This document shows positions 49,801-52,800 of a stretch of DNA of 64,000 nt, piece after piece. Within the stretch, counting starts at the first letter, position 1. Every line of letters starts with the position of its first letter. This stretch comes from Escherichia coli (GTDB lineage: Bacteria; Pseudomonadota; Gammaproteobacteria; Enterobacterales; Enterobacteriaceae). The stretch lies in assembly GCF_013122565.1 (NCBI RefSeq), contig NZ_CP053258.1. One strand, 5' to 3'. The position numbers are program-made.

Positions 49801-52800
49801 AGATTAAAAAACTGAAAAATAAAACCCAGATGTTTTCCACGAATCACAGCTAACTGCTCTTCCGGCAGTTGGTTCAGTAATTTATTTAAAAATATCACCG
49901 TTCCGCTGGTCGGTTTATCAATACCCGAGAGAATATTCAACAGAGTACTTTTACCACTGCCTGATGGCCCACACAGTGCGAGAAATTCGCCTTTATTGAT
50001 ATCAAGATTAATGCTTTTAAGCGCATCAACCTTTCCTGCCCCGGCACCATAACACTTGTAAATGTTGCTAAGCGAAATAGCGGGCAACGATTTAATAGTA
50101 GATTGCATACGACTGTCGTTATCCTTCAAGGTATTCAAGGTCAAAGTAGTGATAACCAAACTGTTTATCGGCAATGACCGTACGCATTTTTCCACCGGGC
50201 TGAATATGACGGGTTAAATAATCCATACTCAGCGCGGGCGTCAGACAACCGCTTTCTCCGTAATGGGCTACCAGGTCGATAACGCCAGCAGCAGGCCGGG
50301 ACGGCATTTGTCGCCGTTCGCTGAAGGCCATGACATCAATATCCGTAGCATGCTGTGGCGCAGTGCCGGAATGATATTCCCCGCATTGCAGCCTGATGGC
50401 GCTCTCACGCTGGCTGAGAATAAAACAACCCACGCGTTCAACAGATAAATTCACCTCATCAGCACGACGGGGGAATAAACGCTTAGGCGGTTTACCCACA
50501 TCCTCTTCAGAGAATACCAGTACCGGAATTGCCCGATAGGCAGCGCAAATCACCACGTTATCGAATACATCCCAGGCGAGATAATCCTGCGCCATACGCA
50601 GCGCCTGAACGAATGCCTGTTTTTCGCCACGAATTTTGCAAGTCGGCTCAGTTATCGAAAACTTCTTAAGTAAATTCTTGGGAAGCGTATCAATAGTGGC
50701 GATATGCAGCGCACTGGAAATTTTTTCAAACGGACCGGATTCGCCCCAGGAATCGGCATAAATAAATGCCGTGCGCGATTTCATTAACTTCATGCGTTCT
50801 TTAGTCGGCATTTGTTGTAATGCAGAATCGGTCACCTGCTCCATCGCCTCAAGGTAAGGCATATATTGCGGATTACGGATCCGTTCCGGCGCATAAATAT
50901 CGTTCTCAACGCCAAAGCGCTTCAGCCCCCAGCCATTAGCACGGGTGCCATATAATCCTCTTTCGTACATATGTGCTTCCCAGGCGTTGAGCCAGGTCGG
51001 CTGATAAAAATAAAAAATGTCGTCCGGTTCCGTAAGCGCCCAGGAAGACAGGTAGATACTCTTTTCCGTCATTTCGCGCGCCCCGCTTGCATATTTGACA
51101 TAACAACGCCAATAACCGAACCATCGACACCCACACCAACCTTCAGCAAATGGCGTTTGCTATGGTTTGTCACGCTGCCGTCCGTAAGTACCAGCGAAGC
51201 CATGCTGTCGATAATGACGTCGTTACCAACAGGTGCGATCAGTTGATGATGCGTCAACGAATGGTGGCCAATGATCAGATCGACAACACCGGATCCGGTT
51301 GCGGTATAGCCGATCTGCCCTTTATAGGCGAGAACGGGGATCTGCCGCTCCCCTGCGAACATGGTGATGGCTTTGGCTTCCGCGTTATCGCTCACTGCCG
51401 AACCGTTGCCGTGTGGAAGAATGGCTGCAAGATCATCCAGCGCAATTTCAGCCTGCTTCATCGCGGCCTGCATGACCTTGTGCACGTTAGTGCTAAGCCA
51501 GGAGGCATCGTTGCTGCGGCCCGCGCTGATTTGGGTGTAAGTCGTTTGCACCCTTACGCCCTCACTTTGTTGACGCGCCCGGCGGTGATGAGCGCTTTCC
51601 AGTAGGAGCGCGCTAAAACCTTCTGCGAACGCCACACCTTTACTGTTTTCACCAAACGGCTGAACCTGTTCGCTGTCCAGCATCGATTGCGTTTCCAGGA
51701 ACCAGATATCCTGGGTTTTAATTTTCGAACAGTTCAGCACAATCGCGAGATCAATCCCGCCCTGCTCAATGCCCTGCGTCGCCAGATGCACCGCAGTCAG
51801 TGACGAGTTACTGGTGCAGTTCATGTTAGGCGGCAAATACTGCAAGCGATATTTGCGCGCAAGATGGCTTGAAATCGTGTCCTGCGACATCTTTGAGGCA
51901 TGCAGATTTGTGATGGATTGCGTTAAGTTGATATCTTCTACATCGTTGTAATTATAGAAAGATTTGTAATCCAGCCCGTCGATACGCGGCCCAATACCGG
52001 TCAGATAAACGCGAACGTTGCGCCCGGCCAGGCAATGCTTATCCAGCATTGCCTGTTCCAGGGCTTCGTCGATCAACTGAGACAGCAGGTCCAATGCGCT
52101 ATCGTCCACCTGTTTCAACGTCGCCACTGACGGATTACCCTTAAACCCGCATTTAATGGCTTCCTCGTTGGAGGTAAACCAGGGTGTACGCGCAACGCGT
52201 TTCCCCTGTTTCAGATTGTCAATTAACTGCGAACAGTCTTCGGCATACGGCATCCACACGCTGTAACCCGAAATAATAGCGGCATTGTCCACAGTCTTAT
52301 CCCTTAATGACGAACGCGTAGTAGTTGCCGCCTTCCGTTGCGCCAACAAGCAGGACATGGTTCAGCGCAAGTTTCATCGACTGGCGTACAAAATTCACAC
52401 GCTCATCAAAGAATTCCACCGTATTTGGAATCGCAGGTACTGCCTGCTTCTTAATGCAGTCAGTAATCACGGCGAGGTTAAGCAAACCAGCGGCAGAGGC
52501 GACAAAACCAAAGCAAGCGTTGTAGTTCACTACCGGCACCGCCGGGTTTTGCGCAGCGAAGGTGTTGTAAATGGCGTCAATTTCGATACGAGAATGGTCA
52601 TCGCTGCCGTTGCTGGTACCACAGACCAAATCAATATCGCCAGCAGAGATGCCCGCATGCGTAAGGGCGCGTTCAATGGCCAGCGCCATCGACGCGGATT
52701 TTTCTTCCAACAATGAGGCGTCGAAGTAGGTATTACTACATGACTTACCGTAGCCCACCACTTCCGCGAGAACCTCAGCGCCACGCGCCGCAGCCAACTG

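Follow-up and report, generated by a model that had tools for sequence, protein, structure and literature searches.

The KS-like gene at its locus

The window analyzed here is a stretch of 64,000 nucleotides of Escherichia coli DNA (NCBI RefSeq assembly GCF_013122565.1, contig NZ_CP053258.1), and the subject of this study is a gene on its minus strand that encodes a protein of 407 residues related to β-ketoacyl synthases (KSs), hereafter the KS-like protein. The coding sequence (CDS), defined by its open reading frame (ORF) and translation, corresponds to the EDL933_RS07255/WP_000367826.1 family, for which WP_052953468.1 is a further accession. It carries the following features, in which residue assignments are taken from alignments with KS enzymes and CLF denotes a chain length factor.

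51069..52292, minus strand: CDS of the KS-like protein, 407 codons
52290..52292, minus strand: GTG start codon
52300..52305, minus strand: Shine-Dalgarno-like AAGGGA, overlapping the 3′-terminal codons (I-K-G-stop) of the KS-CLF gene, which lies upstream
51816..51818, minus strand: codon of Cys159 (TGC), at −2 to the nucleophile column, opposite the Thr of D-T-A-C
51810..51812, minus strand: codon of Ser161 (AGT), in the catalytic-Cys column of KS enzymes
51411..51413, minus strand: codon of His294 (His303 of FabF), in an invariant H-G-N-G motif
51306..51308, minus strand: codon of Tyr329 (TAT), in place of the second catalytic His (His340 of FabF)

The identical GTG-initiated CDS of 1224 nt is called as a "beta-ketoacyl synthase" by RefSeq and its annotation pipeline (PGAP) in E. 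coli PapRG-04-4, EDL933 (O157:H7), and XJ6-3, and around this gene the PapRG-04-4 locus is 99.9% identical to the window. Of 5426 complete E. coli genomes, 381 carry the gene, always as a single copy; when the ranked E. coli carriers are sampled at even intervals, O157:H7 or other Shiga-toxin-producing strains make up most rows. The EDL933 copy lies between dgcT/ycdT and ycdU, inside O-island 47 (OI-47), which has been reported in nearly all E. coli O157:H7 strains (PMC8565820). "Fab genes" in OI-47 received a passing mention in a study of genomic islands in Acinetobacter baumannii (PMC3224125). The reading frame is intact in the 381 E. coli genomes and in approximately 28 other loci, and its dN/dS within E. 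coli is 0.07 to 0.14. The KS-like CDS is a real, conserved gene that is annotated but uncharacterized. One shortened version was encountered, in Mixta mediterraneensis (locus L036), where the frame stops after 248 residues and the rest of the surrounding cluster is present; this copy may be a pseudogene or an assembly error.

Residues at the active-site positions

The KS-like protein matches both ketoacyl-synt domains of Pfam (N-terminal PF00109, 4e-12; C-terminal PF02801, 1.4e-11), its AlphaFold (AF2) model has the KS fold with a pLDDT of 88, and Foldseek superposes it on AntD, FabF, and FabB with a TM-score of ≈0.8 at 14 to 20% identity. Every KS model of NCBIfam scores far below its cut-off, the best at 63 bits against a cut-off of 629 (PRK06501) and fabF at 51 against 494. 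Three strings locate the residues of interest: NCTSNSS at positions 158 to 164, HGNGS at 294 to 298, and GYT at 328 to 330. In alignments with the erythromycin synthase DEBS, FabF, and other solved KSs, HGNGS falls on the first-His motif HGTGT and GYT on the second-His motif GH(T/L), such that H303, H340, K335, D311, and E314 of FabF correspond to H294, Y329, K324, D302, and E305 of the KS-like protein. The first-pass annotation had recognized both the HGNGS motif and the replacement of the second catalytic His (GYT for GH). Both observations hold, His294 being invariant and Tyr329 occupying the second-His column in all 118 members of a homolog set that spans 48 to 99% identity.

The same annotation had described NCTSNSS as a Cys motif. 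The string is indeed present, but it does not supply the catalytic Cys, as four alignments place Ser161 in that column instead. In the phmmer alignment with DEBS, D-T-A-C-S-S-S-L lies over N-C-T-S-N-S-S-L, and the same register is returned when a 45-sequence family profile is compared with four solved KSs (two domains of a Brevibacillus polyketide synthase [PKS], the ishigamide KS, Streptococcus pneumoniae FabF, and an OzmH-type KS), when the protein is aligned by MAFFT L-INS-i with FabF and 19 distant relatives, and when hhalign matches the profile to that of 41 canonical KSs (probability 99.4%). In the AF2 model the nucleophile helix comprises residues 163 to 176, the register expected for a nucleophile elbow at 161. 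Ser161 is conserved in all 118 homologs and Cys159 in 107; the other 11 have Ser, Gly, or Ala at the latter position, which is Cys, Ser, or Ala in distant relatives. Because Ser161 and not Cys159 occupies the catalytic-Cys column, the triad positions read, by alignment, as Ser-His-Tyr instead of Cys-His-His. A MAFFT run on only four sequences (FabF, the two halves of the 852-residue KS-CLF protein, and the KS-like protein) put the FabF Cys opposite Thr160; we consider this a local misregister, the profile-based alignments agreeing on Ser161.

The residues that are invariant in the family (Ser161-Asn162, Gln194-Asp195, His294-Gly-Asn296-Gly, Asp302, Glu305, Tyr323-Lys324-Gly, Gly328-Tyr329, Thr332, and Asp390-Gly-Ser) fall at the canonical KS active-site motifs. 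For comparisons across genomes we used 29 loci, 24 from a scan of one genome per species and five from an exact-protein look-up; S161, H294, N296, K324, Y329, and an acidic residue (D/E) at 390 are invariant in all full-length copies at these loci, down to ≈26% identity. A hidden Markov model (HMM) search of 1.84 billion representative proteins recovered approximately twenty further stand-alone relatives, scoring 180 to 330 bits, after which the matches were ordinary KS domains of modular PKSs. All of these distant relatives retain G-Y and H-G-N-G, Tyr329 being kept in all 19 that were aligned, and almost all have Ser in the nucleophile column. One of them, P0285, has a Cys in that column together with the His and the Tyr. 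By this pattern, the KS-like proteins form a subfamily that is small and distinct, recognizable by a conserved signature at the active site, and are not a decaying copy of FabF.

Two readings of the protein can be assessed directly against these data. The first is that it is a Cys-bearing priming or elongating KS in which the register is shifted locally and Cys159 serves as the nucleophile. Within the narrow family, Cys159 is retained in 91% of the sequences, the four-sequence alignment demonstrates that the register is not trivially fixed, and P0285 combines a Cys in the catalytic column with His and Tyr. The four better-supported alignments all point to Ser161, however, Cys159 varies in 11 of the 118 homologs in which Ser161 is invariant and again in the distant relatives, and the predicted helix begins at residue 163 rather than 160, leaving this reading very improbable. 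The second is that the gene is a decaying paralog or pseudogene without function, for which the weak Pfam scores and the truncated M. mediterraneensis copy could be cited. Set against these are the intact frames, the invariant motifs, the conserved synteny and translational coupling described below, and a dN/dS of ≈0.1, because of which the gene is not a decaying copy; we assign decay a negligible probability. Both the Cys-dependent priming KS and the pseudogene are thus essentially excluded.

The established classes of KS provide a second means of placing the protein. Of the features that define elongating enzymes of the β-ketoacyl-acyl carrier protein synthase (KAS) I/II type, it has the KS fold with both Pfam domains and the first His (His294, as H-G-N-G-S), and it lacks the catalytic Cys, the second His, and the Gly-rich C-terminal loop with its gating Phe (N-x-F-G-F-G-G), where it instead has V-G-V-D-G-S with the invariant acidic residue at 390. 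No match to FabH or ACP_syn_III was found that would indicate the ≈320-residue architecture and Cys-His-Asn triad of KAS III enzymes; with 407 residues and Ser, His, and Tyr, the protein is of the KAS I/II type. KSQ domains have Gln for Cys and keep both His residues, a pattern from which Ser161 and Tyr329 both depart, and the KS0 pattern (Cys kept, His of HGTGT lost) is the opposite of what is seen here, where the Cys is lost and that His is kept. CLFs also lack the Cys, but the KS-like protein has Ser instead of Gln in its place, and its first His, Lys, and surrounding motifs are invariant, unlike those of CLFs. None of the known priming types, whether FabH-type Cys-His-Asn, KSQ, or ApeR-type Cys-His-His, is matched. 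By these comparisons, the KS-like protein is best placed within the broader KS/CLF kind, as a subfamily of the KAS I/II fold that conserves Ser-His-Tyr at the triad positions. The first-pass annotation had proposed an additional, specialized KS, possibly a priming enzyme, rather than an elongating one. Alignment to KS families revealed no canonical Cys-His-His triad, in agreement with an additional, specialized, non-elongating member of the family, but the premise that it carries the Cys gives way to Ser161 at the nucleophile position. On alignment evidence, the protein departs further from condensing enzymes than had been thought.

Probable translational coupling, a putative cryptic partner, and the conserved cluster

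The KS-like gene is embedded in a longer series of genes transcribed from the minus strand, the relevant members of which are listed here.

43330..58123, minus strand: remainder of the conserved cluster, acpS to ycdU, colinear in 29 loci
50119..51072, minus strand: "hypothetical" or "ATP-binding" protein of 317 residues (WP_000137012.1 or WP_000137008.1), a cryptic thiolase-fold (CLF-like) protein and probable heterodimer partner
52297..54855, minus strand: KS-CLF fusion of 852 residues, with two KS domain pairs in Pfam and 454 bits to NCBIfam fabF
54929..56089, minus strand: GcvT-family protein (folate-dependent aminomethyltransferase fold), a constant member in the 29 loci
58139..63659, minus strand: two-partner secretion (TPS) pair, TpsA (a 1270-residue exoprotein resembling filamentous hemagglutinin, FHA) and a ShlB-type TpsB, directly upstream and co-oriented

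The start of the KS-like gene is tied closely to the end of the KS-CLF gene. The TAA of the latter (52299..52297) is followed by a spacer of 4 nt and then by the GTG (52292..52290), with AAGGGA (52305..52300) located 7 nt upstream of the GTG. The first-pass annotation had identified both this sequence and a GTG 5 nt after the upstream stop, that is, beginning at the fifth nucleotide; PGAP chooses the same start, the N termini of homologs (MDNAAIISG...) coincide with it, and other loci agree. It had erred in stating that there is no in-frame ATG before codon 36, as codon 14 (in W-M-P; 52253..52251) is an ATG. The longest ORF would begin at an in-frame ATG at 52358, 22 codons further upstream and 62 nt inside the KS-CLF gene. 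In 29 other loci the equivalent start codon is GTG (16), TTG (8), or ATG (2), with three not assignable, meaning that GTG or TTG is used in 24 of the 26 narrow-family loci in which the start could be assigned. In most loci and across genera, the KS-CLF stop is again followed by a gap of 4 nt, with AAAGGA or AAGGGA at the same place. From these comparisons, the non-ATG start appears to be a well-supported, conserved feature of the gene, and its conservation together with that of the 4-nt spacing implies translational coupling of the KS-like gene to the KS-CLF gene. The weak start codon suggests either that this coupling has been selected or that the stoichiometry of the KS-like protein is tuned down relative to KS-CLF.

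Downstream, the ATG of the 317-residue protein overlaps the stop codon of the KS-like gene (ATGA), and the two genes are always adjacent in the loci examined. The 317-residue protein has diverged too far for sequence methods to detect its thiolase fold; the structures that it matches include ChlB3, CerJ, SalC, and the TAS1 KS. A more distant, metagenomic version of the cluster encodes both families in a single polypeptide of 784 residues (P0288), of which residues 12 to 427 belong to the KS-like family and residues 454 to 755 to that of the 317-residue protein (hhalign probability 99.2%, E 9e-20). We considered whether this fusion could be a frameshift artifact at the ATGA overlap and rejected the possibility, the halves being joined in a single frame by a Pro-rich linker of ≈25 residues. 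Thiolase-fold enzymes are obligate dimers. Because of this rule, the translational coupling, the constant adjacency, and the fusion, the KS-like and 317-residue proteins probably pair as a second heterodimer of the KS/CLF type. Matches of ≈1800 nt in tblastn searches, which might be taken for an insertion in the KS-like gene, instead reflect a weak second high-scoring segment pair to the CLF domain encoded upstream.

The first KS/CLF pair of the cluster is the 852-residue fusion itself. Its N-terminal half is of the FabF type, scoring 454 bits to TIGR03150 (fabF) over residues 6 to 398, with the Cys, both His residues, the Lys, and the gating Phe intact. Its C-terminal half is CLF-like; the Cys position is occupied by Glu, where CLFs usually have Gln, and the two His positions by Thr and Phe. 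As the N-terminal half is a bona fide FabF-type KS, the elongating enzyme of the pathway is already accounted for. We infer that the cluster carries two KS/CLF-type pairs, because the "hypothetical" protein of 317 residues is a probable thiolase-fold partner of the Cys-less KS-like protein.

From acpS to ycdU, the gene order begins with an AcpS-type phosphopantetheinyl transferase, a ketoreductase (KR) of the short-chain dehydrogenase/reductase (SDR) family, a FabZ/ApeI-like dehydratase (DH), an acyl carrier protein (ACP), and the GcvT-family aminomethyltransferase. Next come KS-CLF, the KS-like and thiolase-fold proteins, an ABC ATPase, a secreted protein of 218 residues, and a MacB/FtsX permease, and the series is completed by a LolA/TP_0789-like protein, a 462-residue protein that carries a signal peptide, a malonyltransferase of the FabD-like type, and YcdU, a polytopic membrane protein. 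Together with the TPS pair, these genes, all on the minus strand, constitute a conserved module of 17 genes. No enoyl reductase (ER), thioesterase, dedicated release enzyme, or starter-activating ligase was recognizable in the cluster with NCBIfam and Pfam, and a literature search yielded no precedent for a GcvT-family protein linked to a KS-CLF system.

Wherever the contig reaches far enough, the order is colinear in all loci, which come from Enterobacterales, Acinetobacter, Neisseria sp., and metagenomes. Among narrow-family loci, TpsB is encoded wherever the contig extends far enough upstream (Enterobacter, Kosakonia, Klebsiella, Leclercia, Mixta, Serratia, Pantoea, Rahnella, Izhakiella, Acinetobacter, and Neisseria sp.), and it is absent from the two most distant versions, L008 and L009. 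This linkage suggests, from gene content, a functional connection between the secreted exoprotein and the lipid product of the cluster. L008 and L009 lack the TPS pair altogether, one of the two being preceded by fimbrial usher genes. In both, an additional SDR/KR gene, the second in the cluster, separates the permease gene from the LolA-like gene, and L008 encodes an extra protein of 240 residues after the thiolase-fold gene; these extra genes hint at a chemically different product.

The genes of the cluster do not evolve at the same rate. Across loci, the KS-like protein is 51 to 71% identical and its 317-residue partner 48 to 65%, as compared with 69 to 87% for KS-CLF, KR, DH, and ACP. Faster evolution is one of the observations compatible with a non-catalytic, structural subunit, in which the KS-like protein would be a further CLF-like module with a part in shaping the substrate tunnel, in ACP docking, or in scaffolding the GcvT-like protein, KR, and DH. 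The loss of both hallmark catalytic residues also fits this explanation, and inactive KS-fold partners are known among CLFs, in amxFabFmut, and in the KS′ domain of PfaB. The active-site motifs, however, are invariant (S161-N162, H294-G-N296-G, K324, G328-Y329, and D/E390-G-S) even at 26% identity, which is not the case for true CLFs, and the elongating KS already has a CLF domain of its own in the fusion. This conservation pattern weakens the case for a role that is structural only, and we regard such a role as unlikely.

E. coli K-12 retains a 3′ relic of the cluster, consisting of the pseudogene ymdE and ycdU (window 43144..44656; K-12 locus L010, 5504..7016), which is 98.7% identical to the window; this homology starts immediately behind IS3D, within the final third of the FabD-like gene, and continues through ycdU. 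The ymdE and ycdU genes have been reported to belong to a core genome associated with mastitis (PMC4951805). K-12 has no counterpart to ≈32 kb of the window (11047..43144) that lie between ycdU and the serX-ghrA region, and homology to K-12 resumes over 11047..9608. An ORF for a tyrosine recombinase is located next to ycdU (≈41160..42251, minus strand), and the ≈32-kb segment is probably an integrative island at the tRNA-Ser gene serX. PapRG-04-4, which is otherwise 99.9% identical, has a different content in this segment, and colinearity with that genome does not hold over the first 37 kb of the window (positions 1 to 37 kb).

Proposed function of the KS-like protein

With the catalytic Cys and the second His both lost, chain elongation by the KS-like protein is not expected; judged by its aligned residues, it should be unable to run the Cys-thioester ping-pong reaction on which elongation depends. 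Its closest parallels are the KS/CLF heterodimers, including ApeO-ApeC of aryl polyene synthesis, Iga11-Iga12 of ishigamide synthesis, AntD-AntE, the PfaC didomain, and amxFabF2/amxFabFmut, which share the KAS I/II fold and are among its top structural matches. As in those systems, two thiolase-fold genes are adjacent and coupled and one of the products lacks the triad, and, as for PfaC, a fused form exists (P0288). The cluster also resembles aryl polyene clusters in having a discrete ACP, a KR, a DH, no ER, and a LolA-like export protein. Unlike the known pairs, in which one subunit is Cys-His-His, this pair combines a Ser-His-Tyr protein with a partner that has no recognizable motifs and is undetected by any sequence method, and the cluster already holds a complete KS-CLF fusion.

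Other comparisons are less close. ApeR, the extra FabB-like KS of aryl polyene clusters, is likewise an additional stand-alone KS beside a KS-CLF system in a Gram-negative type II cluster of the polyene kind, and it is a homodimeric, condensation-competent KS (PMC8358021). Unlike ApeR, the KS-like protein has neither the Cys nor the second His and appears to pair with another protein. A further parallel lies in DpsC, ChlB3, and CerJ, which have the thiolase fold and in which an acyl-enzyme is used, or could be, for transfer rather than for iterative condensation; DpsC, the priming KS and acyltransferase of daunorubicin synthesis, has a Ser-His-Asp triad. These enzymes are KAS III/FabH-like homodimers of ≈340 residues, unlike the KS-like protein, a member of the KAS I/II branch in which Tyr replaces the second His. 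KS0 and KSQ domains are also KS-family members without condensation activity, and they keep a partial reaction, either transfer or decarboxylation. In KS0 the Cys is kept and HGTGT has lost its His, in KSQ both His residues are present and Gln replaces the Cys, and in the KS-like protein Ser replaces the Cys, the first His is kept, and Tyr replaces the second.

The reading that we favor, with confidence that stops somewhat short of even, is that the KS-like protein is the non-condensing subunit of a second KS/CLF-like heterodimer and acts in acyl transfer or off-loading through Ser161; the heterodimer is inferred, and the chemistry is speculative. Under this proposal, chain elongation would fall to the canonical Cys-His-His domain of KS-CLF, whose gene lies 4 nt upstream, and the weak GTG or TTG start 4 nt after the upstream stop would couple translation of the KS-like gene to that of the KS-CLF gene. 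The pair formed with the 317-residue protein would bind the acyl-ACP of the cluster, and Ser161, with His294 as general base, might form an O-acyl-enzyme, a step that is especially speculative. The finished chain, a (poly)unsaturated or hydroxy acyl group, would then be transferred or off-loaded toward the MacB/LolA-like export route, making the pair a thiolase-fold acyltransferase and not a condensing enzyme. We favor acyl transfer because a Ser nucleophile is usual in acyltransferases, because export machinery is present and no release enzyme is recognizable, and because KS-fold enzymes that release or transfer chains (ChlB3, CerJ, SalC, and the TAS1 KS) are among the fold matches. Ser nucleophiles are the rule in acyltransferases, and DpsC provides an example of a thiolase-fold acyltransferase and priming enzyme with a Ser nucleophile.

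The main rival is decarboxylative priming, in which the pair would convert malonyl-ACP to acetyl-ACP to start the chain, as KSQ domains and type II CLFs do. Malonyl decarboxylase activity emerges in KSs whose active-site Cys is replaced by Gln and, to a lesser extent, by Ser, Ala, or Gly, which speaks for this role; Cys-His-His KSs need both histidines for decarboxylation, which speaks against it, as the second His is absent from the KS-like protein. His294 and Lys324 are retained, the hydroxyl group of the Tyr could replace the hydrogen bond of the second His, as Asn does in Cys-His-Asn enzymes, and the fused CLF domain has Glu and not the Gln associated with decarboxylative priming. In an anammox heterodimer, moreover, decarboxylation needs a FabF homolog with a mutated triad (bioRxiv 10.64898/2026.05.19.726425). 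The partner here is nevertheless not a Cys-His-His KS, the 317-residue protein having no recognizable triad, and the canonical KS domain encoded upstream could prime alone, as the KS of PfaA does (PMC12895367). On balance, we consider decarboxylative priming rather doubtful.

Several observations weigh against acyl transfer as well. The FabD-like acyltransferase of the cluster could by analogy off-load the chain, as PfaB-type acyltransferases do (PMC12895367), which would weaken the argument from the lack of a release enzyme; the "Ser-His-His" mentioned in that study is unrelated to the Ser-His-Tyr protein described here. The evidence for the heterodimer comes from the arrangement of the genes, their translational coupling, and one fusion in a metagenome, and the faster evolution of the KS-like protein and its partner relative to the core elongation enzymes (51 to 71% against 72 to 86% identity) is also compatible with a structural role. 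A literature search found no functional study of the KS-like protein or of the cluster product.

A more specific form of the acyl-transfer proposal, which we consider improbable in its full extent, is that the pair constitutes a new class of heterodimeric thiolase-fold acyltransferase that off-loads a specialized acyl chain made by KS-CLF, KR, and DH onto a lipid exported by MacB/LolA or onto the TPS exoprotein. As a precedent, some TpsA/CdiA proteins are known to be acylated on lysine by acyltransferases that depend on acyl-ACP. No acyltransferase gene of that kind was found in the cluster.

The names "beta-ketoacyl synthase" for the KS-like protein and "ATP-binding protein" for the 317-residue protein are misleading. 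Dissection of the pathway changes accordingly, in that its "third KS" lacks a catalytic Cys, its neighbor is a hidden thiolase-fold protein, and two pairs of the KS/CLF type have to be considered. The interest of the KS-like gene lies in this unusual conserved active site, the hidden partner, and their placement in a 17-gene, TPS-linked lipid module of a major pathogen. The thiolase superfamily would gain a new catalytic variant in a KAS I/II-fold protein whose active site is strictly conserved as Ser-His-Tyr, and the constant linkage to TPS genes suggests a surface lipid or lipidated exoprotein relevant to colonization. If the pair does off-load the chain onto an exported lipid or onto the exoprotein, OI-47 of enterohemorrhagic E. 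coli O157:H7 would encode a previously unrecognized surface module that combines a lipid with a secreted protein.

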